From IMG/VR virus record IMGVR_UViG_3300028304_000465: DNA of 64,000 nt; one strand, written 5' to 3'. Position 1 is the stretch's first letter. The number at the start of each line of letters is the position of its first letter. The notes beneath the pieces were generated by a model. The model did not search any database. It had not been told where the DNA came from and saw only the letters and a list, made by a program, of their open reading frames with translations. A program made the translations under genes and the position numbers. Source of the DNA: a virus. Positions 221 through 26,443 of the stretch are shown here, one piece after another.

Positions 221-969
221 GGGGACATCACCTCCCGGAGCGTAGCCTGCTCTCGACGCGGCGGCTCCAGATCCAGCAGAGGACAGAACGACAACAGCCA
301 CCGGACGTACTCGCTGGGAATAGCAGCGTGAACGGATTGCTCGGGCCAGTCGGTCGGAACGCCCTTCGCCTCCGCGAGTTCTTGGCGCTGGTACTCCGTG
401 TTGTTGTAGTTGTCGCGGGTCGACATGGTCAGATCGGGTCGGCCCTTTTCGACGGCGTCCGGGACGGGAAAACTCGTCTCGAAGTGCCGTTCCAGATCGA
501 ACGGGAGGTCGAACGCGAGCCCGTTCACTCGCGTCGGGTCGTCTAACTCCGAGCAGCGTGGAACGTTCTCGATGATGTGGTGGTCGGGGTCGAGAGCATC
601 GAGGACATCGCGCACGTTGAGCTCCTCGAAGCCCGGATACCGCTCCTCTATCTCGCCGTCGTCCCACTCCCAACGTTCGGCGTTGACCTTCGTCAGCGGA
701 CTCCAGCGCTGGCACGGCGGACTCATCCAGACGAGGACCGTCTCGTAGGCTGGAAGGTACGGCGCGAGCGCGTCAAGCAACCACGAAACGTCGCTCGCGT
801 CACCTTGGATAAACTCGCCGGGATAGTCGTCGGCGTAGTCTTCGATGTCGACGCCGACATGAGCCACGCCAATGTCGTCGAGCGTGTAGCCGACTCCGCC
901 GCGCCCCGAGTAGAGGTCGACCACGAGGACGTCGGATCGTTCAATCCCGCCTGTGGAGTGATCACTCAA
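217..969 (-). CDS. short DNA cytosine-C5 methyltransferase-like protein (TTG start, ~250 aa)
   Basis: Motif I-like VVDLYSGRGG, catalytic SPPCQ, motif VI IIENV; TTG start overlaps the upstream TGA. Confidence 0.75.
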   Translation of the reverse strand: MSDHSTGGIERSDVLVVDLYSGRGGVGYTLDDIGVAHVGVDIEDYADDYPGEFIQGDASDVSWLLDALAPYLPAYETVLVWMSPPCQRWSPLTKVNAERWEWDDGEIEERYPGFEELNVRDVLDALDPDHHIIENVPRCSELDDPTRVNGLAFDLPFDLERHFETSFPVPDAVEKGRPDLTMSTRDNYNNTEYQRQELAEAKGVPTDWPEQSVHAAIPSEYVRWLLSFCPLLDLEPPRREQATLREVMSP

Positions 970-1118
970 GACGAGCCACCTCCCGTGACGGGGCGACGCA
1001 CGAGCTGGTGTGACTCGCGGGGACCGCACTTCGGACAGATCGCGCCGCCGTCGGTCGCGACGCCGGGACCGCCGTCGGGAACGACGGCGGTCAGGCAGCC
1101 GATACAGATCGTTTCCAT
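966..1118 (-). CDS. small Zn-finger protein (50 aa)
   Basis: METICIGC...ATDGGAICPKCG, hand-translated; ATDGG motif typical of haloarchaeal virus/plasmid small genes. Confidence 0.55.
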   Translation of the reverse strand: METICIGCLTAVVPDGGPGVATDGGAICPKCGPRESHQLVRRPVTGGGSS

Positions 1119-1123
1119 CCGGC

Positions 1124-1570
1124 TCACCGTCGCTCACCTCCCTCAATCCCGTCGACGAACTCCTCGGCGAGCGATTCCCACCCGCGCTTGTCGTCGACGT
1201 GCTCGATCCAGAGAGCGAGCACTTCGTCGTCGGCGATCGCCTGTCGGTGCTCGGGATCTGCGCCAGGCGCCTCGACGACATCGAGGACGCGCTCGCCGGC
1301 GAGGCCACGCCGGAGCAGGTGGTACGCGCCGCACTCGTCGCGACCGACTAACCGGTCGTAGCGGGTCACACACTCGATATCCAGCGCGGCGCCGAACGCC
1401 GGGCTCGGGTAGTCAGGGCCGACGAGCCGCGATCCACGTTCGTCGATTGCGACGACGGTCGCGAAGGTCTTCGCCGTGATCGAGCCGACCGAGCGGTCGA
1501 CGACGACCACGTCGCCAACTGAGAGATTTTCCGCGGCGACGCCATCGGGTGTGGTGGCGTCGACGCTCAT
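1124..1570 (-). CDS. hypothetical protein (~148 aa)
   Basis: Acidic ORF; ATG at 1570 overlaps the upstream stop. Confidence 0.65.
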   Translation of the reverse strand: MSVDATTPDGVAAENLSVGDVVVVDRSVGSITAKTFATVVAIDERGSRLVGPDYPSPAFGAALDIECVTRYDRLVGRDECGAYHLLRRGLAGERVLDVVEAPGADPEHRQAIADDEVLALWIEHVDDKRGWESLAEEFVDGIEGGERR

Positions 1571-1677
1571 GGCTGGCACCTCCCATCATCGAGTGCTGGA
1601 CAGGCTTGCTCGTCGTCGGTGATTTCGAGCCCGCAGTACTCACAGATCTGGCGTGGGGTGCCCAGATCGATACTCAC
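1567..1677 (-). CDS. small Cys-rich protein (36 aa)
   Basis: (M)SIDLGTPRQICEYCGLEITDDEQACPALDDGRCQP; GGAGGTGA SD upstream of GTG. Confidence 0.55.
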   Translation of the reverse strand: MSIDLGTPRQICEYCGLEITDDEQACPALDDGRCQP

Positions 1678-1846
1678 CGACCGTCACCTCCCTCGGAAGG
1701 GCCACCAGCAGACACGTACCCGCGCCGGGTAGCCTGCGCTACTCGCGTTCGCGAGGGATGCTCGAAAAACAGATTCCGTGCTCTCGACGTGTTGAAAACA
1801 CCGAAAACAACAGGCAGCCGTCCCTCGGGACGGACTTTATTTCGGA

Positions 1847-1878
1847 TGGACTCGCCGGGATTTGAACCCGGGGCCTTC
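1847..1878 (-). other. att core: 3' fragment of tRNA-Ala (T-arm plus acceptor 3' strand)
   Basis: Minus strand GAAGGCCCCGGGTTCAAATCCCGGCGAGTCCA matches the haloarchaeal tRNA-Ala 3' end; no 5' half present; 130 bp from the integrase start. Confidence 0.8.
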
Positions 1879-2008
1879 GCGCCTCGCTCCGCTCGGCGCG
1901 ACACCGCAACGCAAAGGCTCCCACTCGGGCAGGTAGTGCTACGCAGGTATCTCCTGAATGACGCACCGGAGTGTACCCCCGGTACGTTAATCACTTCTTT
2001 CTTCGACC

Positions 2009-3028
2009 ATGACAACGCTCGACCAAACTTCCCCCGAAGAAGCAGTACAGATGTACCTCAAGTACCGTGAACCAGAAATCAGTCAGACGACACTCTACGA
2101 ACACAAGTGCCGCCTTAACCGCTTTCTGGAGTGGTACGACCGCGACGACATGACCAAGATGACTCGGAAAGTCGCCGCGAAGTATCGCTTTTACCGAACC
2201 GATGAGGTCGCACCGACGACGCTGGAGAACGAGATTCGCACCTTCCGGCTGTTCATCCGATTCTGTGAGGACTTCGGATGTGTCCCTGAAGGTGTTGCAA
2301 AGCACATCGACGTGCCAACGGCGTCCAAGGACCATCGCTCCCGAGACGTGAGCCTTGAAGAGTCAGAGGCCGACGCTATCCTCGACTACCTCGGAGAGTA
2401 CCACTACGCTTCGTTCAAACACGTTCTCTTCCACCTGATGTGGAACGTTGGAGCGAGAATCGGTGGTGTCAGAGCGCTCGATGCAGGTGACTTCCGAGAG
2501 AGTCCCGACCCCGGCGTAGACGGGTGGTTCCTCGACTTCCAAGACCGCCCCGAGCAGGGGACACCGTTGAAAAATAAATGGAAGTCCGAGCGGAGAGTGC
2601 CAATCGGTGACACCCTCACTCAAACAATACAAGATTGGAAGGAGCATCATCGCCCCGATGTAGAGGACAATGAAGGGCGCAAACCGCTTCTTGCTACCGA
2701 ACAGGGCAGACCACACAAGACCACTATCCAGCGCCACATCTACGGGATGACGCGACCCTGTTGGTACGGCGCAGACTGTCCTGAAGAGCGCGACCCCGAT
2801 GAGTGTGAGGCCGCCGGGCCGAAGCAAGCCGCGTCGAAGTGCCCCGCGTCTCGCTCGCCTCATGCCCTTCGACGTGGTAGGGCAACAGCGAACCTCAACA
2901 AAGGGATGACGAAAGACATGACCAGCGAACGCATGGACATGTCTCGTGAAGTGCTTGACGAACACTACAATAAACAGACCGAGGAGGATAAGCGACGACT
3001 CCAGCGGAAGTTCCTTGACGGGGACTAA
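2009..3028 (+). CDS. int: tyrosine integrase (SNJ2-like haloarchaeal family)
   Basis: Catalytic R (GARIGG), HxxR (SPHALRRGR), Y (VLDEHY); N-terminal SAM-like domain; adjacent to tRNA fragment. Confidence 0.92.
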   Translation: MTTLDQTSPEEAVQMYLKYREPEISQTTLYEHKCRLNRFLEWYDRDDMTKMTRKVAAKYRFYRTDEVAPTTLENEIRTFRLFIRFCEDFGCVPEGVAKHIDVPTASKDHRSRDVSLEESEADAILDYLGEYHYASFKHVLFHLMWNVGARIGGVRALDAGDFRESPDPGVDGWFLDFQDRPEQGTPLKNKWKSERRVPIGDTLTQTIQDWKEHHRPDVEDNEGRKPLLATEQGRPHKTTIQRHIYGMTRPCWYGADCPEERDPDECEAAGPKQAASKCPASRSPHALRRGRATANLNKGMTKDMTSERMDMSREVLDEHYNKQTEEDKRRLQRKFLDGD

Positions 3029-3279: not shown

Positions 3280-3957
3280 TCACTCGTTTTCTTCTCTTAC
3301 GCTGTCACGAAAGTTCTTTCGCCCACCACCCTTCGCGCTTTGTTCTTCGAGGAATTTTTGATACTGCTTTCGGGCGAAGCCTACCTTCTTGTTTTCCAGA
3401 GTTCCGTCCCACTTCACCAACTCGCGGATGTCTACTTCTCCGACGACAGCGAGGAAGTGAGTCACCATGTTCTCTGGCCCCCACAGGTGTTCTTGCTCGG
3501 CCATGATTTTTTGGAGGTCCCAACTTTCGTGAGGAGTGATGCGTTCGGACACCTCGTAGGGGTCCCACGGTATTCCGTTATCTCGGCCCGAGATGTCTGT
3601 TACTTCTACGTCCCGCATCGTTTTACCTTTCTCCAACGTGAAGTAGATATGAGCTTCAGCGTATCCTTCGCAGGGAAAGAATAGCCGTTTCTTGGAACAG
3701 TTAGGGCAGTACGTAGCCAGCGGAACGAGTGGCCTTTCACGATGGATATAGTCCGGTATCTGTGTACTTCCTTCGAAGGTGTCGTTTATCACATCGTCAG
3801 CCACATAGTGAGCAACACGGGGATGAGAAGTGTAGTTAACACCTTTCGAGCAGAAATCACAGACAAAGTGTTCCTCACCGGGATCATCGGGGTTGAACTC
3901 TGACCCCTCGAACTCTTCTTCTATCTCTTCGTCGGTGAAGTGTGGGTTGAATCTCAT
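3280..3957 (-). CDS. hypothetical protein with two CxxC motifs (225 aa)
   Basis: CDFC and CPNC; acidic. Confidence 0.75.
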   Translation of the reverse strand: MRFNPHFTDEEIEEEFEGSEFNPDDPGEEHFVCDFCSKGVNYTSHPRVAHYVADDVINDTFEGSTQIPDYIHRERPLVPLATYCPNCSKKRLFFPCEGYAEAHIYFTLEKGKTMRDVEVTDISGRDNGIPWDPYEVSERITPHESWDLQKIMAEQEHLWGPENMVTHFLAVVGEVDIRELVKWDGTLENKKVGFARKQYQKFLEEQSAKGGGRKNFRDSVREENE

Positions 3958-4412
3958 GCGTGTATCTCCTCATGGTCGTACTGTTCGTGTAGTGCCTCGA
4001 TGTACTTTTCTCTATCTTCATCACCCTCAAACTCTTCTCGGATGTTCTCTCCACTCTCGCTTTGATCGTGTCGGAGAAGATCGAGACAGGTGTTGCACAG
4101 CCCTGCTGATACTTGGTCCATCTCGCCGTGACACGTATCGAAGAACTTACACTTCAGTTCTTCATCGTCAACTTCGGGCGTCCAGTTCTCGTGTGCTTTA
4201 TCCATCCAGTAGCTTATCTTCGAGGGAGTTGTCCCGAGGACGTGGGCTACTTCGTATTGGTACGTGTGCTTTTCGTCTAACTGGACCATCAGTTCATGGT
4301 CCTTCCACGGCTCATCTCTGCTCTTGAAAGCGGGATGGGGTGACGGGCCGAGTTCGTCTTCGAGGTCGCGTTCAGTCTTGGCTGTCATGAGTACACTCTT
4401 CTCCATTTTCAT
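3954..4412 (-). CDS. HTH plus Cys-rich protein (152 aa)
   Basis: PWKD...EVAHVLGTTPSKISYWMDK HTH-like segment; CxxxxxC...CNTC. Confidence 0.7.
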   Translation of the reverse strand: MKMEKSVLMTAKTERDLEDELGPSPHPAFKSRDEPWKDHELMVQLDEKHTYQYEVAHVLGTTPSKISYWMDKAHENWTPEVDDEELKCKFFDTCHGEMDQVSAGLCNTCLDLLRHDQSESGENIREEFEGDEDREKYIEALHEQYDHEEIHA

Positions 4413-4944
4413 CTATCGGTACGACCCCGCCGCCGCAGTGGGGACATGAACCGAGAGCGAGTATTGGCTTGCCAACGTTGCCACAGTTACAACACCGGGA
4501 CTTTACAGCATCTTCTGGAAGTAGGCCAGTCATGTTCCTGTTTCCAGAGTCCGGCCGCAACCCTCACAGGTAAACTGAGACTCGGCGTATTCGGCCATGA
4601 GCGTGTAACTCGCCCCTTTTCGCCAATTCCTGTGTTCACACTCCGTACAGATGATGCAGATTGCTTTCTGTTGGGACTCCTCTGCCTCTTGCTCGTCGGG
4701 GTGGTCGATGTCAACCATTCTTCGGATACTGTTCTTCGAGACGAATATTAGCGAGCGTTACATCAGCGTCTTTCTGGTTGTCAACAGTTTTGATAACCGA
4801 TGAGTCGTCGTGTTTTGCCTCGACGCAGAGGCGAACGTCGTAGCCCCGTTCTTCGAGTTTGTCCCGAAGAGCGAGGACTGTTTCTTCATCCATTGGTTCT
4901 GTTTCCCACGTATCCGCCGCTCTCGTTGCACGACGGTCATTCAT
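4372..4944 (-). CDS. three small overlapping ORFs (4372-4560 and 4530-4718 Zn-finger; 4711-4944 hypothetical)
   Basis: CCNCG/CPHCG; CTEC/CEGC; acidic; start-stop overlaps. Confidence 0.6.
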
Positions 4945-5161
4945 CGGTCTGGAGCTTGTCAGCGGCCTCGTTCAGCGTCTCTGCCAATCCACGGGCTTGC
5001 TCGGGTGTCATACTCAGTGATGTTTTTCGTGTTGGGTCATCTTGTGTAACATACGACACGTTCTCAGGCACTTGTTCAACCGAGTGTAACTCAACCACAG
5101 GGTTGTCAACGGTGTGGTGAATTGCTACCTGAACGTGACCGTTCGTTGCGTCGTCACTCAT
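4937..5161 (-). CDS. hypothetical protein (74 aa)
   Basis: MSDDATNGH...; acidic; overlapping gene junctions. Confidence 0.6.
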   Translation of the reverse strand: MSDDATNGHVQVAIHHTVDNPVVELHSVEQVPENVSYVTQDDPTRKTSLSMTPEQARGLAETLNEAADKLQTDE

Positions 5162-5378
5162 TGTAGGGCCTCCGCTCAACTTCGACCGTTTCTGCGAGTT
5201 CTTTGATGTGTTCTCGCTGTCCCTGTTCGGAGAGAGTCTTGTGTGAGTTCGTTGCGTATCCCTTGATGATGTCCGCGGCTCGCTTCTCCGAGAGTTCGAT
5301 TTTCGTATCGACTCGGGCCATCCCGAAGTCATCGTGCGGTTCGACGTGTATCCATTCTACCGTGATTGTGTCTGTCAT
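5154..5378 (-). CDS. hypothetical protein (74 aa)
   Basis: MTDTITVEW...; acidic. Confidence 0.6.
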   Translation of the reverse strand: MTDTITVEWIHVEPHDDFGMARVDTKIELSEKRAADIIKGYATNSHKTLSEQGQREHIKELAETVEVERRPYNE

Positions 5379-5481
5379 GAGTTTTCCTCGTCTCCGGGTT
5401 CGTAGTCGCACCATAGATGTCCTCCAGTTGGGGGAAGCAGACCTCCGCAGTCGGGACAGCGGCCGTCGTCGGGGTCATCAG

Positions 5482-5772
5482 TCATGGCTCGTAGTCCTCC
5501 GATGCGACCTTTGGGTCGATGTCGAATCCCCCATCTATGAGAGCCTGTTCGACGTGTTTCACTATAAGCGCCTGTACTTGTTCGTCGGCGTAGTCGTCTA
5601 TCTGTCCTTTAGCGTACCTGTACGTCCCGTCTCCGTCAGCATGGAACACAAGCTCGATGTCGTCCAACGAAACGCCGGTTACACTACCGACGAATCGGAT
5701 GGATTCACCGGAGCGAATTACAAGTTCGCCCTCTGCCCATGTTCCATCAATGGTTGTTTCGTACTGAGTCAT
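5482..5772 (-). CDS. hypothetical protein (96 aa)
   Basis: MTQYETT...; acidic. Confidence 0.6.
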   Translation of the reverse strand: MTQYETTIDGTWAEGELVIRSGESIRFVGSVTGVSLDDIELVFHADGDGTYRYAKGQIDDYADEQVQALIVKHVEQALIDGGFDIDPKVASEDYEP

Positions 5773-5774
5773 TG

Positions 5775-6206
5775 TTATGGTCTGAAGTGTAACTGCCAGC
5801 CTTCGAGCGATATAGTTACTTGCCCACAATCCGGGTCGGGATCTACATTCATTACCACGTCCTCGTTCCCGGCGTGGAACTCTTCCTCGATGTGGATGAC
5901 CTGTTCTGCCACGTTCTCGTCCACCTCATCCCAAGAAGAGATGGTGGGTAAGTCGATTCTTTCACCGCTTGGAGTACATAGACTATCATACTCGAAGCGA
6001 TACGTGCGTGTCTCATCACAGGACCACTTCTCGCCGTACTCGCCCTCTGCGTAGCGACACTGAAGATGGAAGATAGCCGCTCCATCCTCAATGACGGGAT
6101 TATCTTTACTCTGACACGGGTCGAACTCGTGTTCGTGGTCGTGAGGCTCGATGATGCCGCCTCGGATGAGGTCGCGTCGGGACGTACCGGGAGGGTAGCC
6201 GCCCAT
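5775..6206 (-). CDS. hypothetical protein (143 aa)
   Basis: MGGYPPGTSRRDL...; acidic. Confidence 0.65.
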   Translation of the reverse strand: MGGYPPGTSRRDLIRGGIIEPHDHEHEFDPCQSKDNPVIEDGAAIFHLQCRYAEGEYGEKWSCDETRTYRFEYDSLCTPSGERIDLPTISSWDEVDENVAEQVIHIEEEFHAGNEDVVMNVDPDPDCGQVTISLEGWQLHFRP

Positions 6207-6565
6207 TAGTCCCACCCGAGTTCTTTTGCTACCTTCTTTCCAGCCCGAGCCGCCGAGGGAGAATCAGACTTCGCTTCAATAGCCTTCATCCAACACTCAC
6301 GGGCTATTTCTTCGTCTACTACGCCGGGAAGGTATCCACGAAAGGACAGGGAACTATATATTTCAGTTTCTTTCAGGTTCTCGATGTTTCCGCCATCCCG
6401 TTTAAATAGTTCCAGCGCAACATAGTTGTCGTACTGGTCTGCGATTTCTCCGAAACGTAGCTCTGGTTTGTCATCACCTACGGGTTCAAATCCGGCTTGT
6501 GAAGCCGGACAATTACAGTCCTCTACCTGATTTTTTCCGTATGCGAATTGTCTTTCTTCACTCAT
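6206..6565 (-). CDS. hypothetical protein (119 aa)
   Basis: Acidic ORF with coupled start/stop. Confidence 0.65.
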   Translation of the reverse strand: MSEERQFAYGKNQVEDCNCPASQAGFEPVGDDKPELRFGEIADQYDNYVALELFKRDGGNIENLKETEIYSSLSFRGYLPGVVDEEIARECWMKAIEAKSDSPSAARAGKKVAKELGWD

Positions 6566-6651
6566 GGCGTAAGCACTCCCTCGTCACAAAGAGAGCAGTC
6601 AGTGCCTCGATTCCTTACATCGGTGTAACCGCAGTTTGTACAGGTGTTCAT
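6562..6651 (-). CDS. micro Zn-finger protein (29 aa)
   Basis: MNTCTNCGYTDVRNRGTDCSLCDEGVLTP; preceded by the GGGACACAACC leader; TGA overlaps the next ATG. Confidence 0.6.
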   Translation of the reverse strand: MNTCTNCGYTDVRNRGTDCSLCDEGVLTP

Positions 6652-6712
6652 GGTTGTGTCCCGCCTCGTTTGGCGGGGAGGCCGACGCCGGGGGATGACC
6701 CCGGGGCGAGCG

Positions 6713-9139: not shown

Positions 9140-9259
9140 GGTTGGTTGTGTCCCGTCGTTACTTAGATCGAGCGCCCGACAGGTGGCGCAAAGCCTGCTT
9201 CGGGAGTCGAACCCGACGCACGCATTACGTTCTTGTAGTGCGCTCCCCTCGGAACAGAC
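9140..9259 (-). ncRNA. tRNA-like element plus pseudoknot leader cassette A
   Basis: 7-bp acceptor GTCTGTT/AGCAGGC, T-arm TCGGG-TTCGACT-CCCGA, then GCGCC-ACCTGTCG-GGCGC...CGACGGG-ACACAACCAACC-ATG. Confidence 0.7.
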
Positions 9260-10908: not shown

Positions 10909-11023
10909 GGTTGGTTGTGTCCCGCCGTGTTGCAGTCATCACGCCCGACAGGGTGGCGCTCAAGGAGGCCAGCATGGAATTGAACCATGCTTAGACCACT
11001 TGGCCCCGTAGGGTGTCCCTCCC
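10909..11023 (-). ncRNA. tRNA-like element plus pseudoknot leader cassette B
   Basis: GGAGG/CCTCC closing stem, T-arm AGCATGG-TTCAATT-CCATGCT, then AGCGCC-ACCCTGTCG-GGCGT...CGGCGGG-ACACAACCAACC-ATG; promoter at 11049-11058. Confidence 0.68.
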
Positions 11024-13680: not shown

Positions 13681-16479
13681 TTACCATGTGAGTTCGAGGC
13701 AGTTCGTAACGTTCGAGCGCAGTTCTTCGAGGTCAACCCCCTCGTCGGTGGGGTCGATACCTGCATCGTGAAGTGCGAGCAGAATCTCATTAATGCCGCC
13801 GCTGTTGTAGCTCTCCATCCAGTCGTACACGCCACTCTCGTTGTCCCACTTCGGCGTCTCTGCCTTCTGTTTGAGTTCACGCCGAGTGGAGCCACTGATT
13901 TTCGTTTCCGAGCCGGGGAAGCGAATGGGGATACGCTTCGTACTGAACCGAACAGTGAGCATTTCTCCGCTGTCAATATTGAGTAAGTGACTTCTGAAGG
14001 CGTAGGCGGCCCGCTCGAAGGTCCGAGAGTCGATGACACCTACTGTGAACTCGTCATCTTCGTTGAAAGAATAGGACAAGCTAAGTGCCTTCTTCGCGTA
14101 GAGGTTACGGAGTCGGATTGTCGTGTCGTCATCCTGAAGGAGACGCTTTTGCTTCTTCGATGTTGCGTAGAACAGCACGATCTTCTTGTTATGATTGGCC
14201 ATTTCCCCCACGGTGAGCGGTCCACCGGCCGTTGCTATAACCGTGTTTTCTGACCACTCCGTGAACTCTTCGTAGGTCATGACCCGAGGAGAGTCGATGA
14301 GAGCATCGTATTCATCGGTCGTGACCGACGTGATGGCGGCAAACCTCTGCATCGAGTAGTGGTCCGAGATGTTCTCATAGTCAGCCCCTCGGGGAAACAC
14401 TACGAAGAAGTTGTGACCGTCGATGGGATTCCCCGCCTCGATGCGGCCGTTGATCCTTTCAATAGTCCAACGATGGTCTATCTTCTTGTTCTGTGAGTTA
14501 GACCGAATCTTCAGTGTACTCTGTTCGAGAGAAGAGTTACTGCCGTCTCCCCCCTCATCGGTTTTGACAGTTTTGGTGTGTCTCTTGTGAATACTATCAG
14601 AAACGTCGAAGTCATGTTCATCACTCTGTTCCAACGGCACTTCTTTCAGGTAGCCGAACCCGAAGTGTTTCTCGTAGAAGTCGTACTCCGAAGCACTACC
14701 TAACACGATCACAGCGGCGTTGTCGTAGGTATCGTTTACAACTTGGTACTGATCCGTGAAGTTGCCTCCTGACGAGGCCGCCATGAACGTTTCATCGAGG
14801 TCGGCTTTAGCGAGGATGTTACCGAGCAGTTTCTCGGAGCGGCGCTTCTTCTTTGAGGGGTCGTGGGAGTCAGGGACAGCGTAGTCCACTTCCTCGAAGA
14901 GCTTTGCCACCTTCGCGCACATTCCGTCGTCCCAATCAGGCAGGTAGTCGCTATCCTGAAGGTAGTCCGTGATGTTATCCACGTCCATCGAGTAGGGGCC
15001 GTGGTAGTCCACCATACGGTAGAATACCACCCACTCGTCCTGATTGTCGTTCACCGCTATGGCGGGATGCTCTGCCTCCTCCATCTTCTCCGCAAAGACT
15101 CCTGCTTGTTTCTCTTCCTCGGCCTCCATCAACTTCGTTAGATACTGGAAGAACTGCTTGGCTTGACTGTCCTTCTGAAGCCTGTCACGATCTCCGGTTG
15201 GCTCGGGAAGCACGATGTCGTCCTCGTGGACCTCTGCGATGGCCTCTTCACGAGGATCGTCGGAGGGGTCTGCCACGACCATGCCGTCCTTGAAGTACAG
15301 CCCACGATGAGGGCCGTGGACAATACGGCGTTGTTCGTCGTGAATCTGAATTGCTGTATTCCAGAGCGACTTCACGTTGTGACCTGTATTGCGGTCGATT
15401 CGCATAGAGACGAGCCATGTATTTGGAGCCTTGTACGACGAAGCCACGTCAGGCCCGGCAACGATGCTGAACTCACCGGGACGGTCAACTTGGATGGGTG
15501 GGTTATTATGGTACTCTGCGATGTCGGTTCCTCCGTACTCTTCCTTCTCGATCACTCGACCGTTTTCGTGTTCGCGGTACAGCACCGGAACCCGAAGCAT
15601 CTCAGAGTACTTCGCCACCCAATCTTGGATGTTGTCGATGTTGATGCTATCCTGAATCGGAATCGTGAACCGAGTCCCTGTGAACTCTTCAGGGTCGAAC
15701 CCGTCGGGAGTTTCATCGAGTTCCTTCACACCACCGAGCTTGGCGTAGAAGTGGATACCCGAGGCATCCTTTGGTGTCTCGGGATTTACGCTTCGGGTTA
15801 GCACGTTCATGCCACCTTGCTTCCCCGTAATGTTACCGAAGGTCAGCGCTCCCATCCCCATCCGACCGCCCGTGTCGCCGTCCACGATGGCTCCGCTGTT
15901 AAGGGTCGTGTTGTAGGCTTCGACCACCTCACGGCCCGTCATGCCGATGCCGTTGTCCTCGGTCACGATCTCTCGCCCGTCTCGGTAGAGGTCGTAGGTG
16001 ATGGTGGGGTCGTACCCGATGTCTCGGGCCGCTTCGACCACAGCCGAGAGGGGTTGTGGAACCTCGATCTTCTTCAGGTCGCCCATGTCAGTTTCAGCCC
16101 ACTCCTGAAGCACCTTCTGTGGGTCGTCGTCATTCGTTACTGTTTCGCCAGTCTCGGCATGAACCCACATCGTTTGGGTGAGCGAATCAGCACCGTAGTC
16201 GGGGTGATTCCGGAGCAGGAACCGACACTTTCGAATACACGCTGTCTCGTGGTTCTGCTGGTGTTCTCGCGCCCATGCTTCGTCGCTGTCGTAAATCATG
16301 TCCGACAGCATCTCCGTAAGGCGTTCGTTGGAACTCACTTCACGCTCCACGAAGCCTGTTTCACCAGTATGCTCTTCAATCGCGCCTCCACTCTCCATCT
16401 CGAAGTCGGCGGTTCCGACGTTACCCTCTGCTTCTTCGATACGATTCGGCTCGGTCGTGTCCGGCAGGTTTTGACTCAT
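13681..16479 (-). CDS. GHKL (Hsp90/MutL-type) ATPase-domain protein, rIIA-like (932 aa)
   Basis: N-box AWAREHQQNHET, G1 TEDNGIGMT, G2 GRMGMGALT, G3 GTRFTIP. Confidence 0.75.
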   Translation of the reverse strand: MSQNLPDTTEPNRIEEAEGNVGTADFEMESGGAIEEHTGETGFVEREVSSNERLTEMLSDMIYDSDEAWAREHQQNHETACIRKCRFLLRNHPDYGADSLTQTMWVHAETGETVTNDDDPQKVLQEWAETDMGDLKKIEVPQPLSAVVEAARDIGYDPTITYDLYRDGREIVTEDNGIGMTGREVVEAYNTTLNSGAIVDGDTGGRMGMGALTFGNITGKQGGMNVLTRSVNPETPKDASGIHFYAKLGGVKELDETPDGFDPEEFTGTRFTIPIQDSINIDNIQDWVAKYSEMLRVPVLYREHENGRVIEKEEYGGTDIAEYHNNPPIQVDRPGEFSIVAGPDVASSYKAPNTWLVSMRIDRNTGHNVKSLWNTAIQIHDEQRRIVHGPHRGLYFKDGMVVADPSDDPREEAIAEVHEDDIVLPEPTGDRDRLQKDSQAKQFFQYLTKLMEAEEEKQAGVFAEKMEEAEHPAIAVNDNQDEWVVFYRMVDYHGPYSMDVDNITDYLQDSDYLPDWDDGMCAKVAKLFEEVDYAVPDSHDPSKKKRRSEKLLGNILAKADLDETFMAASSGGNFTDQYQVVNDTYDNAAVIVLGSASEYDFYEKHFGFGYLKEVPLEQSDEHDFDVSDSIHKRHTKTVKTDEGGDGSNSSLEQSTLKIRSNSQNKKIDHRWTIERINGRIEAGNPIDGHNFFVVFPRGADYENISDHYSMQRFAAITSVTTDEYDALIDSPRVMTYEEFTEWSENTVIATAGGPLTVGEMANHNKKIVLFYATSKKQKRLLQDDDTTIRLRNLYAKKALSLSYSFNEDDEFTVGVIDSRTFERAAYAFRSHLLNIDSGEMLTVRFSTKRIPIRFPGSETKISGSTRRELKQKAETPKWDNESGVYDWMESYNSGGINEILLALHDAGIDPTDEGVDLEELRSNVTNCLELTW

Positions 16480-18265: not shown

Positions 18266-18338
18266 GGTTGTGTCCCGCATGGTTGGTGCCTTACTGTCGT
18301 CAAAGACGGTCATCGGCGTATTAATTCCTTGAGCGATA

Positions 18339-19403: not shown

Positions 19404-20459
19404 TTAGAGGCCGACCATCTCCATCGCTTCGTCCTCGTCGTAGCCCATCTCCATGAGGTTCCCTGCTTCCTTCAGTCGCGTTCCTCGGGAAGCGTCCTCG
19501 GGAATGTCTACGCTCACCTCGACCGTGACGCCGCTTTCCTTCGTGACTGCCTCACCCCCCTCATCGGTGTCTTCCGTGGTATCGTTGTCCTGCTCGCTTC
19601 CTCCATCGCTTGCCGCGAGATAGGTCCCTTCACCTGCTCCGCTGATGGTTTCGCTTTTTGCGTCGCTTTTGATGGCGTTGATGCGACCTTCGAGGGCTTC
19701 GATGGCGGTCTTTCGAGCATCGCCGTGTTTCTCGACAGCGAGCAGGGCTTGCGCTTCTGTGAGGTCCGTGAGCCGTGGTTCAGCATCACGAGAACACCAC
19801 CCTCGGATCGTCCCAATCGTCACCCCTTCGTCGGTGGGGTTCGCCCACTTCTCGACTGCGGCCTCGATGTCGGCCATGATGACCGTGCCTTCATCGGCGG
19901 CTTTTTCGAGAGCGTTCGTTTCAGGCTCCGGCTGACCAGCCGCTTCAGGCTCGTCGGGAACCTCTGCGAGAAGGGCCAGCGCGTCGTTCAGCGCGTCCTC
20001 GTTGTTGACCATCACCGGAAGGGGTTCGCCGTTCACTACCGGGACTTGAAGCTTCCTAAGCTCATCAGCGTTGCCGTAGCCCGCGCTTTCGAGCATGTCG
20101 ATGACCCCTCCGTCAATCTCCTCACTCTCGATGCACGGGAGTTCGTTATCGAACTCGTCACTGTACTCCTCCATGTTGAAGGGGTTCTCGTTGCTCTGAA
20201 CCGCACCGATGGCGTTCCGCTTCTCGTTTAGCGCGGCAATCCACTGCACCTGCGGGGACTTCGTGTCTACGTTGTCGGAAGTCCACTGCGGTTCGTCCGA
20301 AGGGTGGGCTTCCACCGCCGCCCGACCTGCGTTGAAGGCGTTCCGAACCCCTCCGTAGTAGGAGGACGCTTTGTTCGCTTCGACTTCAGGCTCGCTTTCT
20401 TTGTTCGCGTTTTGGTCCTGCTCGGTACGTCGGTCGAGGTACTGCTGTCCCTTAGACAT
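19404..20459 (-). CDS. acidic hypothetical protein (351 aa)
   Basis: Long acidic ORF with GC3-biased codons. Confidence 0.8.
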   Translation of the reverse strand: MSKGQQYLDRRTEQDQNANKESEPEVEANKASSYYGGVRNAFNAGRAAVEAHPSDEPQWTSDNVDTKSPQVQWIAALNEKRNAIGAVQSNENPFNMEEYSDEFDNELPCIESEEIDGGVIDMLESAGYGNADELRKLQVPVVNGEPLPVMVNNEDALNDALALLAEVPDEPEAAGQPEPETNALEKAADEGTVIMADIEAAVEKWANPTDEGVTIGTIRGWCSRDAEPRLTDLTEAQALLAVEKHGDARKTAIEALEGRINAIKSDAKSETISGAGEGTYLAASDGGSEQDNDTTEDTDEGGEAVTKESGVTVEVSVDIPEDASRGTRLKEAGNLMEMGYDEDEAMEMVGL

Positions 20460-20642
20460 CGTTGGAATCCTTCGCCACTAACGCAGGCGAGCTTCGCACC
20501 CGTTTGTTTCCAGCGCGGGTGAGGCTGGCGGGGGGAGTGAGCCAGTTGGTGACTCGACCCCCTTACCCGAAACGCTCTGCTGGGGGCGAGTTTTAATTTT
20601 TTTTTTATTTTTTTTTTACTGTAGAGGGAGGGGTGAACTCCC

Positions 20643-21524
20643 TTACAGAAGGTCGCCGCAGGCCGTACAGAAGTGGACCACGTCGATACCCGGAAGGCCT
20701 TCGGCCAACTTCACGTCACTCGAAGGGTGGTCGCACTCGTTGATAGCCTCGATGCGCTCTGCTTCGCTATCGTAGGAGGGGAGGGACAGGGTTCGCGGGT
20801 CGTGAATCTCGGGCGTAGCGCTCATGCCTCGACCCCTTCCAGCGCCGCTTCAACTTCTTCGTCGGTCGGAACTACACTCACGCTAAAGTTCGTGAGCGTT
20901 TCTTCGCGTTCGTCCATCGCTCCGGGGATGTAGAACTCGAACTCGGTTTTCATCCCTTCGAGGCGACCCCCTTCGCGCTGGTCGAGCGTAACTTCGACGT
21001 GACCGGGAGCGCCTTCAACGTCTGCGTCTCCATAGACCGTCATGGAGACGATGTTCTTGTGAAAGAACTCGTCTCCAGCGGCGGCCAGCATCTTTCGCGT
21101 TTCCTGTGTGTTCATCTGCGGTTCGCTCTCGATGGAAAGGGTGATGTCACTCATGTTAGAATTCTCCGTGGGGGCTTTCCTCTTCGTGCTTTGCGGCGTT
21201 CCGAATCGCTCGAATTTGCGCTCGCTTTGCTTCCCACTCTATGTGGTTCACGGGGTTCACGACTGCTTCGGTGGTGTGGTCGGCCATCTCTTGCGCTTTG
21301 CGCTCCTTGTAGCGCAGGAAGGGGAAGAACGAGAACGGACCCCCTCGAAGGGCCTCTTCGAGCGTCCGTCCGATAACGAGTTCAGCCGTACACTCTCCGA
21401 GAATCAGTTTCGCTTCAGCCGCTTCGAGCGCTCCCGAAACTTCGTCCTCGATGAACTTCAGGGGGTTGATGTGATCCGCGTATTTCTTGGGAGTAACGTG
21501 GGAACCGTCGTAGGTTTTCGCCAT
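20643..21524 (-). CDS. three ORFs (20643-20825 with CTAC, 20822-21154, 21156-21524)
   Basis: Coupled acidic ORFs. Confidence 0.65.
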
Positions 21525-21525
21525 C

Positions 21526-21698
21526 TTAGCCCCACTCCTCGATGGTGTCCTCGTCTTTGTCTTTCAGGGCCAGCCGCCCTTCGACGCCCGCCGCTTCGTT
21601 TAAGGGGACCTTCATCGGCCACCCCGTCGCCGCGCTTCACGTTCGTAAACTGTCTCGACCCTCGTGCTACCCTTATAGGTAGTCAAAAATCCCTTCAT
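21526..21698 (-). CDS. two micro-ORFs (21612-21698, 28 aa; 21526-21615, 29 aa)
   Basis: MKGFLTTYKGSTRVETVYEREARRRGGR follows the GGGACACAACCT leader; MKVPLNEAAG...EEWG is coupled by an ATGA overlap. Confidence 0.45.
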
Positions 21699-21699
21699 A

Positions 21700-22742
21700 G
21701 GTTGTGTCCCGCCACTTTCGCAGGCGGCGTCTCGCACGCTCTTTAACCCGAGCGTGAAGGGTCGTCAGGGGCGCTTCTCACTAACCACGCGAAGCGCCCT
21801 TACTGACGTGACCGCGAAGGGTTCGTTGTCAGGATGCGGGTCGTCATTACTCGTGAGCGTGCTTCCCGGTCGCGGTCGTCGTGAAGGACGACCACTTAGG
21901 GGATTTACACGCCGTTACGCCATTTGTAAGCGAGTTCCTTCATGTCGCTAACTGCCTTCCGAAGCAGGATTCAACAGAGGGTGTCACGCTGTATCGCTCG
22001 CATCCACGCCTTCTCCGAAGGCCGGTCGCCCGGTTGGTCTTGTGAAGCACGCTTCGTCGCGTCGATTTCCGTGGCGGGAGCTTGCCGTGACCCGGTGGTG
22101 TCATGGGATTCCAATCGTCGGTCGGCCTTCGTCGGGTCATCGAGAGCGCTTCGGAACCCTGCGGGGGGTCGCTCTCTCGCCTTCCATCCTTCGGTCGATT
22201 CACTTCTTCCGCTCCCTTAAGGGAGGCTCACCGTGAGGCTCGACTACCCTTTCAGGTGGGGGGATTAGTGCGTCATTAGCGTCTGCGTTTCTCCCCTATG
22301 GGTCCGTTCAAGCCCTTCTCGGTTGTAGCCTCGAAGGGGGAACACCCCTGAAGGGGCTTGACGGAGGGGCAGACGCGCTTTCACATCCACGCTTTGTGTG
22401 CGCTTCGACATAGCCCGAAGGCCGCGACGTGGCGTACTGAAGATGATGCGTTGGGGGATAGGGTCGAACTTGGCGCGGGGGTTCGCGCCTTTAGATATTC
22501 GGCGGTTCTTCACCACGAATCACGTTTTAATACGCGATTCCAAACGAACCGTCCCGTCAATTGGCCCCCCTTACCCCGGTCTGACGCACACGTTTTTAAT
22601 TCGCGTGTGGCCCGTTTAACGAGTACCGAGGGGCCTCCCATCACCTTTCGCGCCTTTAATGACGCAAAGCGCCTCCGTTCGGGGCGTGGCGGGGAACACC
22701 CGGCGAGACAGATTCCGTCTCGCGCCCCGAGTGAGGTATCAT
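21700..22742 (-). ncRNA. candidate ~1-kb structured non-coding RNA or giant 5' leader
   Basis: No acidic ORF; dense hairpins whose G-U pairs and GAAA loops favour the minus strand; TATA TTTAAGTA at 22760-22767. Confidence 0.6.
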
Positions 22743-22776
22743 AGCCAACGGCCGACTTATACTTAAATCTATCGGT
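22738..22776 (-). promoter_or_regulatory. promoter, near-duplicate of 24445-24483
   Basis: Plus strand ATCATAGCCAACG-N9-TACTTAAATCT-NNCGGT, ungapped match to 24445-24483. Confidence 0.7.
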
Positions 22777-23516
22777 CACTCCGGGCGACGCGCAAGCGTA
22801 GTGCTACGCAAGCGCGGACGCAGAGTGACGAGCGGCAATATTCGCCGGTGGTAAACTCGGTGGTAATCGCTACTCTGCCGGTGACAAGGTAGACAAGATA
22901 AAGTGCCGAAAACAGTAGTCTCACACCCTCTATGCTGTCGATTCTTGATTTGTCGAATCAGATCAAAAACCCAATTTTGCCGTCCGTCGGCCTGTACCTA
23001 CTGATTTCGGCAGTCTAAGCGACTTTGAGGTTGACCTAAACTATGGCAAAATCGACGCAGAAAAGCGACAAAACTTGCCGGATAAGGGTCGGGCCGCGAC
23101 GCGCTTGTGCGAGCGCAGGGGGGCGCAAGGGTGCGCAAGGGTGCGCGGAGGGTCGAGCGAGCGCACGGTGGTTTTTCGGCGCGGGCGGTGGCGGCGCGCA
23201 TAACGCGAGAGCGTAGCGCGAGAGCGCGACGCACTGGAGCGCGACGGGCGGGGCCGAGGGTCCGCGAGAGTCCGCGAGCGACGCAAGTCCGGGCGCTATC
23301 GGACGAGACGTGTCGTAGCGAGAAAGGGGAAACCCTTCCTACTTCCTTCACCCTTACTGGATAAACACACCTCATCGGGTTATGGCCGAGAGGTGAGGTT
23401 ATGAGGGCATCACAATAGTAATCCCTCTTAGGTAGTAACCCGATGAGGGGGCGGCTTTACTGTCGCGTTAGGCTCGCGCCTTGTGGGCGTGAGTGACCCG
23501 TAAAGTGCGCTCGCGC

Positions 23517-23545
23517 AAAAAAAAAACGCCCGGCCGAACGGGGGC
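23517..23545 (-). terminator. hairpin plus T10 terminator
   Basis: Minus strand GCCCCCGTTCGGCCGGGCG-TTTTTTTTTT right after the stop of 23546-23668. Confidence 0.65.
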
Positions 23546-23668
23546 TTACTCGAACGTCGCCTTCGGGGCGCACTCGATCATGCAACCCCCCGGGCAACTC
23601 CCGAAGGCTTCGATGTAATCCTCGGCGCTATTCAATTCGCGTTCGTCGTTTCGCGTGTTTCCGTTCAT
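23546..23668 (-). CDS. small Cys-containing protein (40 aa)
   Basis: MNGNTRNDERELNSAEDYIEAFGSCPGGCMIECAPKATFE. Confidence 0.5.
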   Translation of the reverse strand: MNGNTRNDERELNSAEDYIEAFGSCPGGCMIECAPKATFE

Positions 23669-23739
23669 AGGTATTGGCGCAACCGCGTTCGTGTGCTTCG
23701 CCCGCTTAACGCGGGGCGTGAAGGGGTGTGTTCCCCCGC

Positions 23740-24441
23740 TTAGGCTTGTGCCAGTTCCAGTGCCTTCGCGTGGCCCTTCGAATCGCGCATGGCTTCGAAC
23801 GCTTCGCGGTTGTCGTCCGAGAGTGCGTCTATCGCGTTAGCGTGTGACTGGCAGTAATCAAGCACTCCCTCGGGAGTGACGGCACGACCCATCTTACGCC
23901 CCCCGTGCGATTCGTCGCAGAATGGACACGCCCCGGCGAAGGCAACGTAGTCCTCCGCCGCCTTAAGGCGGCGCATGACCCTTTCATGTTCTTCCTCGGG
24001 GTTTTCTTCGAAGGCTTCGCGTAGGTCGCCCCGTGCCTGCTTGTTCATGTCCGAAGCGGGGGTAGGCTCGCTCTCGCTTTCGTCGCTCTCGCTCGCTTCG
24101 CCCGCTTCGAGCGTGTCGCCGGGCATGACGGGGCCTCTTCCGCCGTCGCAATCCCCGTTCTTGTGTCCGTGGAACGCCGATTTCGAACTTTTCAGAGTAT
24201 CGTGGGCGAAAATCTCGCCACACGCCTCACAGCCGACCGCGCCTTCAGGCACGTTCATGCTCTCGCTCGCGCCCGACCCTTCGCCGGAAGGGGTTTCAGG
24301 GTGGGTTGCGCCTTCGCCTATGCGCACCTCTCGCGTAACCCCGCTCTCGAAGGTGACGGTGAGGGTCGCCCCCTTCACGTCTCCGCTTTCGCACATGTTT
24401 TCGCACTCTGCCACGACCGTTTCGGCAAGTCGGTCAGACAT
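23740..24441 (-). CDS. Zn-finger-containing hypothetical protein (233 aa), first gene of the leftward arm
   Basis: CEACG..H, CPFC...C..H; acidic linker; promoter 24445-24483 directly upstream. Confidence 0.8.
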   Translation of the reverse strand: MSDRLAETVVAECENMCESGDVKGATLTVTFESGVTREVRIGEGATHPETPSGEGSGASESMNVPEGAVGCEACGEIFAHDTLKSSKSAFHGHKNGDCDGGRGPVMPGDTLEAGEASESDESESEPTPASDMNKQARGDLREAFEENPEEEHERVMRRLKAAEDYVAFAGACPFCDESHGGRKMGRAVTPEGVLDYCQSHANAIDALSDDNREAFEAMRDSKGHAKALELAQA

Positions 24442-24444
24442 TGC

Positions 24445-24483
24445 ATCATAGCCAACGACTGATTATTACTTAAATCTGGCGGT
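24445..24483 (-). promoter_or_regulatory. promoter for the 233-aa ORF
   Basis: AGATTTAAGTA about 25 nt upstream of the ATG. Confidence 0.7.
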
Positions 24484-24988
24484 TGATGTGTGCGCAGGTC
24501 GCGCAAGCAATTGGCGTGCGCGTCGCAGGCATCAACACTCCCCTTTCTTAGCTCCCCTTGTGAGTTGAAACGAAGCGTTTTTCGAGAGGGATTCGCCGCA
24601 GGGGGCTACCCTGCTCCGCAAGCGCGTCGCGCAAGCAATTCGTGCGCGGGTCGCGGGAAGCAGGGTGTGCCTCCGAAAGGGCGAACGGGCGCGTCTGTCC
24701 AGAAGCGTGGTACAGAGGTTTTACACCGAGTATTTCCGTGATTAGGGTAGTGGGAAGAGTCAATTCGCGTAGTAGAATTGGAGGGTAGAGTAGGCTGAAA
24801 CCCTCGATTCCAAACCCTTCATGAAACACTGAAATCACACGGCATGAGTTAGTCCCCGTCAAAGGGTCCAAAACGGCCGGCTGACTGACACCAAGTGCCG
24901 AACTCCCAAGGCGTGTGCGCCAGTACAGGCGGGCGAGCGGGGAGGCCCGTGACGCGAAGCAGTGAAATCGGAGGGATTGAAGGGGTTT

Positions 24989-25020
24989 ACTTCATGATTT
25001 CATGACTTCATGACTTCAGG
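24989..25020. repeat. tandem 8-mer repeat x4
   Basis: ACTTCATG ATTTCATG ACTTCATG ACTTCAGG. Confidence 0.8.
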
Positions 25021-25496
25021 CAGGGTAGGGCAGGAGAGCGAGCGTAGGCACGAGCGAAGGCACGAGCGGGGGCGGTACTGCGCGGGTTGGCACACGAGGG
25101 CGCGGGCGAGCGTGTGTGTTTTGGTAACTTCACCCCCAAGACCGTGCCGAGCAGAGCAGAATTTCCACGATTCGGGGTGTGGGGGTCCGTACAGAACAAA
25201 TCTGAAAAAATCTCACCCCCCAAAATGCCTGAATTTCACCCCCCTTTTTGGAGAAAATGGACCACGCACACCCCTCAAAAGGCCAAAATCGGCGTTTTAG
25301 GTCAAAAATTGCGCTCCGATACGGGTTCAAAGAAGAAATAAGGGCAAAATTACCTATCTTTCAGATAAAATCACCCTAAAATAATGAATTAGGCCCCCCT
25401 CTGGAGCAACCCTATATAAACCTTTGTGCTTTCATAGTGGTGAGGAAGTTTGCCTGTGTTGGTGTACTAAACATAGGCATCAGTGGTAACGTTCTG

Positions 25497-25535
25497 TGTT
25501 AGCTAACAGAGTAAAGTTATCGCTGTTAGCTAACA
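25497..25535. promoter_or_regulatory. two copies of the perfect palindrome TGTTAGCTAACA upstream of the late operon
   Basis: 25497-25508 and 25524-25535, flanking AAAGTTAT. Confidence 0.6.
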
Positions 25536-25585
25536 TTGAATGCGGAACACCCACCTCATCGGTTTACGACCGATGAACTGTAAAA

Positions 25586-26443
25586 ATGGCAAGTGGAGAA
25601 ATAACTGGCGCTTCTGAGGAAGAACTTCAGAGACTACGACGAGATTTTACAGGTACGCCACCGGACAAGGCAGGTATTCCGTTCGAGGTAGTCTACTGTC
25701 TAACGGAAATAGCCAAACAACCTGACGACTACGACGGTCCAACGCGATACTGCAAAAATTACGCGGCAAACCTAACTGAGGACGAGTGGGATGAGCAGTA
25801 CGACGATCCGTTCGATTCTGACGACCCTCGTTCGAAACACCCGGCTTGCCGGTTTCACGGTAGGTCCTGCAACTCTCAATCGCCTGACCATCTCGATCAA
25901 GGGATGGCGGGCATGACTCACGGCATGTACGCTGAAAACCATAGACTTCGCGCTGACTTTTCGGAAGCAGACGCCAAACTTTTTGACTGGATTCTCTCGT
26001 GGGCTGACATCTACGGTTGGCCCCCTGAAGAAGAGGACCCGGCGCGGTACGACCTTCTCGAACAGTTTGCGTATGACCGTGTTCGGTCTGTACGCGCAGA
26101 GCGATACTTCGAGGATGTTGCCGAAGAAAACGATGGGCAGTCCGAAGTCGAGTACCGAGACATCCGCGACGACGAGGGTGTTGTAGTAGGCGAAGTTCCC
26201 GTGCCAAACACACTCGCGGAGGAGCTTCGCTTACTCCGCAAGGACCTACGGAACCAGATGAAAGAGCTTGGACTCACACCCAAGTCTCGCGGCGAGATGG
26301 ACCTCATGGAGTCGGAAGCAGATGCCAACGAGGCTGTGGCTGAAATCGCTTCCGACGCTCTCGACGGGGATCATGAATATGATCCGTCTCGGTTCGGTCC
26401 TGATGCCGACACCGATGAGGGTGTGGAAGAGAGCGATGGTTAG
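25586..26443 (+). CDS. terminase small subunit (putative)
   Basis: First late gene; C...C.FHG plus THGMYA motif typical of haloviral TerS; helical C-terminus. Confidence 0.7.
   Translation: MASGEITGASEEELQRLRRDFTGTPPDKAGIPFEVVYCLTEIAKQPDDYDGPTRYCKNYAANLTEDEWDEQYDDPFDSDDPRSKHPACRFHGRSCNSQSPDHLDQGMAGMTHGMYAENHRLRADFSEADAKLFDWILSWADIYGWPPEEEDPARYDLLEQFAYDRVRSVRAERYFEDVAEENDGQSEVEYRDIRDDEGVVVGEVPVPNTLAEELRLLRKDLRNQMKELGLTPKSRGEMDLMESEADANEAVAEIASDALDGDHEYDPSRFGPDADTDEGVEESDG

Follow-up and report, generated by a model that had tools for sequence, protein, structure and literature searches.

A minus-strand segment of about one kilobase (kb) in the viral DNA record IMGVR_UViG_3300028304_000465 was found to encode what is very probably a new family of structured RNA, common to Hafunaviridae-like haloarchaeal tailed viruses. 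The record was analysed as one stretch of 64,000 nucleotides (nt), hereafter the window. The initial annotation of the segment had put forward a large, hitherto undescribed structured RNA from an archaeal virus, either trans-acting or a giant regulatory leader, and this proposal is supported by base-pair covariation among homologues, folding stability, presence in an RNA library and the lack of a match in Rfam. Overall, the element is read as a multi-domain RNA, namely a leader with a 3' module serving the next start codon and a stable body with its own role, which we hold with a little better than even confidence.

Homologues were searched for by pattern scans of viral, metagenome and genome collections and sorted with nhmmer, which gave 24 non-identical homologues in five clades with between-clade identities of 45-60%. 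They come from cultured mincapviruses and from hypersaline metagenome contigs. Clade A holds the cultured mincapviruses HCTV-6/15, HRTV-2/7/11 and HSTV-2, clade B the contigs L009, L037, L043, L067 and L074, and clade C, with some domains missing, the contigs L014, L019, L072, L080 and others, while clade F is represented by L154 and clade E by the window alone. Comparison with phage records by blastn returned a 165-nt match in HCTV-6/15 and HRTV-11, and collinear blocks run across the whole kilobase in all six mincapviruses, immediately upstream of gp101. The family blocks CGYCGAAYAYCUAAA, UUCGMCCC, CGUCGCGGYCUUCGGGC, CCGCCRCGGAAAUC and ACAAAYGGCGYAACGG and the 3' module are collinear throughout and present in the window, to which the covariance model of the 3' domain (R1) gives a score of 88 bits (E = 2.3e-17). 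From the predicted start to the next ATG, the homologues measure ~830 to 1220 nt.

The search pattern that recovered the family was the CGUCGCGGYCUUCGGGC block. The gapped pattern scan of the metagenome and genome collections returned ~170 loci, mostly by chance, of which nhmmer kept ~25. A scan of viral contigs with GACGAAGNCCGACCGACGA was discarded, as six of its matches were chance hits in an unrelated phage gene (L003-L008) and only L009 was real. With the 351-amino-acid (aa) protein homologous to gp101 alone as query, nothing was found in the viral contigs, and an alignment of its homologues as query added L014. The sole real locus in the genome collection was L154 (NZ_JBDNGD010000196.1), a 61-kb contig filed under a Halomonas sp. 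metagenome-assembled genome. This contig holds the RNA in full and probably belongs to a haloarchaeal virus, having been binned with a bacterial genome.

The absence of any known RNA family, as noted initially, was borne out by comparison with Rfam 15, including GOLLD, ROOL, OLE, HEARO, raiA, group I/II introns, RNase P, the signal recognition particle RNA, rRNA and hammerhead. No match was obtained at gathering score in the whole window, and at E values up to 10 the region 21000-25600 gave six chance-level matches only, all far under their cut-offs. The only one touching the RNA was a 53-nt "serC leader" at 21662-21714, with 19.8 bits against a cut-off of 35. Literature searches returned no description of this RNA, nor of any giant structured RNA from an archaeal virus.

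Conservation is bounded by the predicted transcription start and the ATG. Across the RNA, 210 of 1043 positions were invariant in all five clades and 425 of 1043 were identical in at least four, compared to 0 of 152 positions invariant ahead of the promoter and 1 of 99 beyond the RNA. The further 1 kb upstream of the RNA promoter showed no conservation between clades. In the promoter itself, 15 of 37 positions were identical in at least four of the five clades, and the TATA-like box precedes the first conserved hairpins at equal distance in all five. At the opposite end, every clade has a final hairpin followed by an ATG within 1-14 nt. The promoter (22738-22776) is repeated at 24445-24483 with 82% identity, where it abuts the 233-aa gene, so that the duplication before a real gene, which had been noticed initially, is confirmed.

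It had likewise been claimed that the segment lacks a plausible open reading frame (ORF) and that its translated frames are unlike the acidic proteome. Both statements hold: no sense-strand (minus) ORF is longer than 96 aa and no antisense ORF longer than 130 aa, and the translations are Arg/Ser/Pro-rich and basic versus acidic neighbouring proteins. Stops occur in all six frames, at 5-23 per frame in the homologues, and the conserved blocks give equal short "protein" matches in every frame. Indels among homologues are not multiples of three. No open frame conserved in position with codon-like substitutions was detected in any of the six frames. A leaderless mini-ORF at the transcription start was considered and rejected, its ATG being shared by the window, clade C and HF2 and missing from clade A and L154. 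Four "hypothetical protein" coding sequences are annotated inside the conserved RNA, namely HCTV-6 gp102 (L001 3977-4174), HRTV-11 gp105 (L002 3777-3980), HRTV-7 gene 105 (L010 3026-3169) and HSTV-2 gene 103 (L012 2489-2632), and these are very probably not genes.

Homologue covariation, proposed at the outset as a check, was found in the whole RNA, in the 3' domain and in long-range helices. The consensus fold of 20 full-length sequences contains 193 pairs, 91% canonical. Over the whole RNA, 80 pairs changed on both sides, compared to 15-25 with 3' partners slid by 1-3 columns and 56 +/- 3.5 (maximum 64) with shuffled partners. In the 3' domain (model R1), 99.7% of cells were paired and 13 of 19 pairs had changed on both sides, a value that none of 500 shuffles reached; in the helix 21756-21750 with 21741-21735 every one of the seven pairs covaries. 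The region 22102-21832 showed 22 covarying pairs of 50 versus 2-9 when slid, again with 0 of 500 shuffles as high, and five of the six pairs of the helix 22094-22089 with 21842-21837 covary across clades. The central conserved region followed with 6 of 29 pairs versus 0-2. Compensatory pairing includes helices that span ~190-250 nt, and the window itself supplied the compensating variants CGGGUC/GACCCG, CACGCUC/GAGCGUG and AGGUGAUG/CAUCAUCU.

Folding of the full-length RNA was more stable than that of dinucleotide shuffles, a second check proposed initially, with a minimum free energy of -433 kcal/mol versus -390 +/- 10 in 32 shuffles (z = -4.15 for the sense strand). The antisense strand reached z = -3.19 and a coding control of equal length -1.21. 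The initial claim that G-U pairs and GAAA loops work on the minus strand only stood in part: RNAalifold energy is equal on both strands, whereas GNRA/UNCG tetraloops favour the sense strand, where they make up 32 of 152 four-base loops versus 9 of 157 antisense, one of them being the invariant cUUCGg. The sense strand is A-rich and U-poor. Minus is therefore taken as the sense strand, on the basis of the tetraloops, this composition and the lower z-score, together with the orientation of the flanking genes and of the conserved TATA box upstream.

The stems listed in the initial annotation (21769-21799, 21874-21893, 22279-22376, 22517-22540 and 22680-22729) are all present in the fold, as are its GAAA loops, at 21716-21719 and ~22250. 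From 5' to 3', the RNA begins with a three-way junction (Table 1) enclosing the hairpins 22722-22704 and 22702-22690, the latter with a UGUUC loop. The closing helix and both hairpins are readable in other sequences in clades C and F and, less cleanly, in A, while clade B has a distinct, shorter 5' domain. The following domain holds the helix 22635-22630 with 22568-22563 and the hairpin 22540-22517, whose place is taken by hairpins of other sequence in clades A and B, and its conserved helix 22502-22497 with 22469-22464 adjoins the CGYCGAAYAYCUAAA block. The two sides of the helix that closes it are AGGUGAUG/CAUCAUCU in the window, compared to AGGUACG/CGUAUCU in other clades; the window strand was misaligned by MAFFT and placed by eye. 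The long stem comprises 12 base pairs (bp), of which 7 covary, with zero non-canonical cells. The stem of the variable hairpin is wholly different in HCTV-6 and HRTV-11 with pairing kept, and HRTV-11 carries a 23-nt insertion there. Inside the domain 21837-22094, the helices 22076-22072 with 21922-21918 and 21913-21909 with 21860-21856 were found, and the hairpin 21893-21874 is peculiar to the window.

Table 1. Coordinates of the structured RNA, its parts and associated features. Positions refer to the window unless another record is named.
Feature	Position	Strand	Description
Structured RNA	21700-22742	minus	~1043 nt; nhmmer E = 7e-180 to family profile
Early promoter	22738-22776	minus	TATA-like box ~22755-22768; predicted transcription start near 22742, ~25 nt after box
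5' three-way junction	22680-22729	minus	Closing helix 22729-22723 with 22686-22680; pairs checked in sequence
Domain 22441-22646	22441-22646	minus	Closed by long-range 8-bp helix 22646-22639 with 22448-22441
Most conserved block	22400-22429	minus	CGUCGCGGYCUUCGGGC; cUUCGg tetraloop hairpin; invariant run 22429-22413
Long stem	22278-22379	minus	22376-22366 with 22296-22279; hairpin 22349-22335, UGUUC loop
Variable hairpin	22141-22176	minus	GAGAGCG...CGCUCUC, beside conserved GACGAAGGCCGACCGACGA block
Domain 21837-22094	21837-22094	minus	Closed by long-range helix 22094-22089 with 21842-21837, ~250 nt span
3' module, three hairpins	21709-21808	minus	21808-21763, 21756-21735, 21727-21709 (GAAA loop)
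GGGACACAACC leader motif	21700-21710	minus	Hairpin before; one base before ATG at 21698
28-aa ORF after RNA	21612-21698	minus	Not conserved; T5 tract 9 nt past its ATG
Second, diverged 3' three-hairpin module	20460-20590	minus	Immediately before gp101 homologue
351-aa gp101 homologue	19404-20459	minus	tblastn identity 32-38% to mincapvirus gp101; matches phrog_32210 (function unknown)
233-aa gene	23740-24441	minus	Behind second promoter copy; counterpart of mincapvirus 253-aa gene; phrog_29328 match E = 1.8e-8
HF1/HF2-group region, L189 (HF2)	~545-1969		
HF1/HF2-group region, L190 (VOLN27B)	4754-6300		
HF1/HF2-group region, L191 (HRTV-8)	4590-6150		
HF1/HF2-group region, L192 (HJTV-2)	4572-6100		

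The A-rich, AUUAAA-type loops described initially proved real. UUAA occurs six times in the window RNA versus 1.6 expected from composition, which corresponds to 5.75 per kb versus 1.21 per kb in the remaining window, and across ten representatives the enrichment was ~1.3- to 6-fold. Predicted hairpin loops, which account for ~13% of bases, hold half of the sites. As the UUAA loop is self-complementary, loop-loop contacts are possible, and so is a common protein ligand.

The homologous region of relatives is represented in an RNA library. In X4, a hypersaline-lake metatranscriptome, contigs covered the RNA element in two different viruses and left the flanking genes uncovered, save for ~30-nt scraps in one of them. 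On L014 (clade C; RNA at 4052-4956), contigs were placed at 4288-4536 and 4869-5045, and the 4.7 kb compared otherwise yielded only the scraps, at 2994-3027. On L037 (clade B; RNA at 3356-4430), contigs covered 3513-4263 and none fell on 3.3 kb of downstream genes. Coverage confined to the element in two viruses argues for accumulation above neighbouring mRNA and against DNA carry-over, and the RNA is probably expressed. The virus of the window itself was not found in any RNA run compared.

At its 3' end, the RNA runs into the GGGACACAACC leader of the 28-aa ORF, as the initial annotation had it. The window holds five exact copies of GGGACACAACC, where ~0.03 would be expected by chance, all on the minus strand (6652-6662, 9144-9154, 10913-10923, 18266-18276 and 21700-21710) and 0-4 nt before the ATGs at 6651, 9139, 10908, 18265 and 21698. 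In four of the five copies the GGG of the motif closes a predicted helix, and in the mincapviruses the motif also precedes gp101. It is a candidate Shine-Dalgarno-less start cassette or processing site. In the second, diverged 3' module, each hairpin can be aligned to its counterpart at 21700-21810 and in the mincapvirus module; this copy is visible by alignment alone and went undetected by model R1 with E values up to 1. Between the RNA and the gp101 homologue the window has three or four additional small genes, a block that seems to have been inserted while the module was duplicated. Immediately 5' of the second copy lies a run of A10-T-A10-TTAAAA (~20590-20625, minus), which may be the promoter of the gp101 homologue or an insertion scar.

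The ORF that follows the RNA varies by clade: A, B and part of C have a gp101-like gene there, and at least four different ORFs take this place in the other genomes. In the window a T5 tract, possibly an archaeal terminator, lies at +9; clade B and L014/L085 have one at +33, and clade A and the remaining members of C lack it. Beyond the 28-aa ORF, a 29-aa acidic ORF (MKVPLNEAAGVEGRL...; 21526-21615, minus) stops 2 nt before the start of a 122-aa gene. It had no PHROGs match and is plausible as a small gene.

Judged by its sequence, the window DNA is that of a haloarchaeal tailed virus, and it is assigned to a new Hafunaviridae-like virus because its large terminase shares 54% identity with the mincapvirus enzymes (HRTV-7, HSTV-2, HCTV-6/15, HRTV-2/11) and 45% with those of the HF1/HF2 group. 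Genes are oriented on the minus strand from 24441 down to 1 and on the plus strand from 25586 on. The record appears to be a circular permutation relative to the linear genomes of cultured relatives, with termini at ~24.5-25.5 kb, which places the RNA locus 2-3 kb inside the "early" arm (minus strand). Three tandem copies of an 8-nt unit (ACTTCATG-like) at 24989-25018 and an AT-rich gap (GC 0.42) at ~25200-25650, where transcription diverges, probably mark the joining point of the termini in the record. Mincapviruses and relatives have a terminase and direct terminal repeats. The structured RNA is located between gp107-like and gp101-like genes, with an early TATA box before it and an ORF start a few nucleotides after it, and gene order around the 233-aa gene matches that of L001 (HCTV-6). 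Pfam and PHROGs comparisons of the neighbouring proteins yielded no function.

Between the RNA promoter and the 233-aa gene lie ~960 nt (22777-23739) without an acidic ORF. This stretch has a reversed composition skew, with A exceeding T and G exceeding C on the plus strand, a GC content of up to 0.68 at ~23100-23400, palindromes around 22930-22990 and folding z-scores of about -3 at 23300-23600. It was considered as part of the RNA and rejected, since it is not conserved between clades, and it could be a regulatory region or a plus-strand transcript. Elsewhere, ARAGORN called a tRNA-like sequence with a four-base anticodon at 15994-16087, inside a 932-aa ORF (13681-16479, minus) and on the opposite strand, which is likely a false call or a tRNA-like element.

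In the mechanism that we propose, the host RNA polymerase would transcribe the RNA early, as the first kilobase of the early operon, and we infer that the RNA is at minimum the 5' leader of that operon. The 3' module and GGGACACAACC would form a cassette, lacking a Shine-Dalgarno sequence, by which the start codon of the following ORF is presented, with the same cassette before four other early genes, while the remaining ~850 nt would persist as a stable, compact folded RNA. During takeover, this body might scaffold host or viral factors or act as a decoy for them, and it could possibly self-associate via the numerous UUAA-type loops of its hairpins. The RNA is followed by at least five different ORFs, which speaks for its independence from the next gene. 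A leader plus a stable RNA with a role beyond the next gene is given about even chances against a pure leader. A more far-reaching version is offered tentatively: the RNA would be the first giant ornate RNA class of archaeal viruses, a stable ~1-kb particle freed or terminated from the early transcript and trans-acting in takeover, with the HF1/HF2 region as its second form and as a hallmark of Hafunaviridae. It would then act, for example, by sequestering a host defence or translation factor, or as a UUAA-loop homo-oligomer like ROOL, GOLLD and OLE.

Several points weigh against this proposed explanation. The scaffold or decoy function and the self-association are conjecture. The global alignment is imperfect, with the window strand of one long-range helix placed by eye, and in 200-nt windows only both ends, and not the middle, folded clearly below shuffles; pairing energy alone leaves the strand ambiguous. 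The RNA-library support consists of two low-depth contig sets from one run, without transcript ends, strand or abundance. One X4 contig extends 55 nt beyond the 3' end of the RNA, so the next ORF is entered by some transcripts, and a conserved terminator was not found after the RNA. Given these last two points, a pure leader fits equally well. Such a purely cis-acting giant 5' leader would have no role as a free RNA and would stabilise the mRNA against 5' exonucleases, time or tune translation, or act in antitermination. It agrees with the start codon lying 1-14 nt past the last hairpin in every clade, with the contig crossing into the ORF, with the recurrence of the terminal cassette ahead of further early genes and of the 3' module ahead of the gp101 homologue, and with no separate promoter of the next gene being visible in clades A-C. 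It is nevertheless thought rather unlikely, as ~850 nt of conserved junctions and long-range helices go far beyond the needs of known leaders, the downstream ORF is not conserved and in the window amounts to a 28-aa orphan in which a T5 tract occurs after 9 nt, and the RNA contigs of two viruses fall on the RNA and not on the downstream genes.

Two other explanations were considered besides the leader with a stable body. A replication or packaging element would be an origin primer or R-loop as in ColE1 RNA II and T4 origin transcripts, a phi29-like packaging RNA (pRNA), or a set of origin or pac hairpins in the DNA. The locus does lie 2-3 kb from the inferred genome terminus behind an early-type promoter, and the opposite strand also folds below shuffles, but these are viruses with a terminase and direct terminal repeats, which package without any known RNA. 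Moreover, GNRA/UUCG loops and the A-rich, U-poor composition are strand-specific, domains of ~200-250 nt closed by long-range helices with conserved junctions indicate RNA tertiary structure rather than a DNA cruciform, and conservation stops exactly at the transcription start and the ATG, so that we regard an element of this kind as very improbable. Still less credence is given to small protein-coding genes as annotated in the four cultured viruses. Short ORFs are indeed annotated over parts of the homologous region, yet no ORF is conserved in position, the frames are broken by stops and "protein" similarity is equal in all six. The 23-nt insertion falls inside "gp102", the products would be basic in an acidic proteome, and base-pair covariation runs through the annotated ORFs.

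Among known systems, GOLLD and ROOL resemble the halovirus RNA in size class (0.6-0.8 kb versus ~1 kb here), in their many domains and conserved junctions, in carriage by tailed viruses and in a function that was unknown at discovery. Both have been reported to form homo-oligomers (PMC12286853), and the UUAA loops might allow the same here, which for this RNA is a guess. They differ in having bacterial rather than archaeal hosts, and the halovirus RNA has no sequence or structure match in Rfam and is fixed at the head of the early operon, abutting a start codon.

A further parallel is found in the HF1/HF2 group (Haloferacalesvirus), which has a ~1.45-kb ORF-free, conserved and hairpin-rich terminal region in the same genomic place, with compensatory changes of its own. 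This region starts after a TATA box with GAUAUGUCGC, a feature shared with clades C and F, and GUGACACCCAACGAACU forms its end ahead of the first ATG; both motifs are similar to those at the ends of the window RNA. The nhmmer family profiles, by contrast, gave short marginal matches only, to the promoter and first RNA bases (E = 7.5e-4 to 3.5e-3), and model R2 of the 5' domain, which contained no base pairs owing to the differing 5' domain of clade B, gave no match in the HF1 group. It is plausible that the region is a second form of the same RNA class; sequence profiles do not demonstrate homology. Papers on the HF1 group name nothing beyond promoter repeats, tRNA-like sequences and a hammerhead (PMC7230728, PMC8707807).

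Structured viral leaders, such as the internal ribosome entry sites (IRES) of picornaviruses and hepatitis C virus, the HK022 put RNA and flavivirus exonuclease-resistant RNA, likewise stand 5' of viral genes and next to a start codon, and by analogy the halovirus RNA could recruit ribosomes, modify RNA polymerase or block exonucleases. These leaders are 65-450 nt long, come from eukaryotic or bacterial systems and share no sequence relationship with it. We know of no IRES-, put- or exonuclease-resistant-type leader in archaea. The phi29 pRNA and ColE1 RNA II are also structured and early, with a promoter near a genome end or origin, but they are 120-555 nt long and have defined packaging or priming roles, no similarity to them was found, and a terminase and terminal repeats are present here.

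Large multi-domain structured RNAs are rare, and each class, from the ribosome, RNase P and introns to OLE, GOLLD and ROOL, brought new RNA biology. To our knowledge, very few large structured RNAs beyond the universal ones have been described in archaea. The present RNA is more conserved than any adjoining protein gene and must therefore matter to the virus, and it sits at the very start of the early programme. Several published "hypothetical proteins" of these viruses are probably not genes. The presence of the RNA in laboratory-grown viruses (HRTV-7, HSTV-2 and HCTV-6) makes it experimentally accessible, and its 3' cassette of helix, GGGACACAACC and ATG offers a handle on the translation of leadered, Shine-Dalgarno-less mRNAs in haloarchaea.

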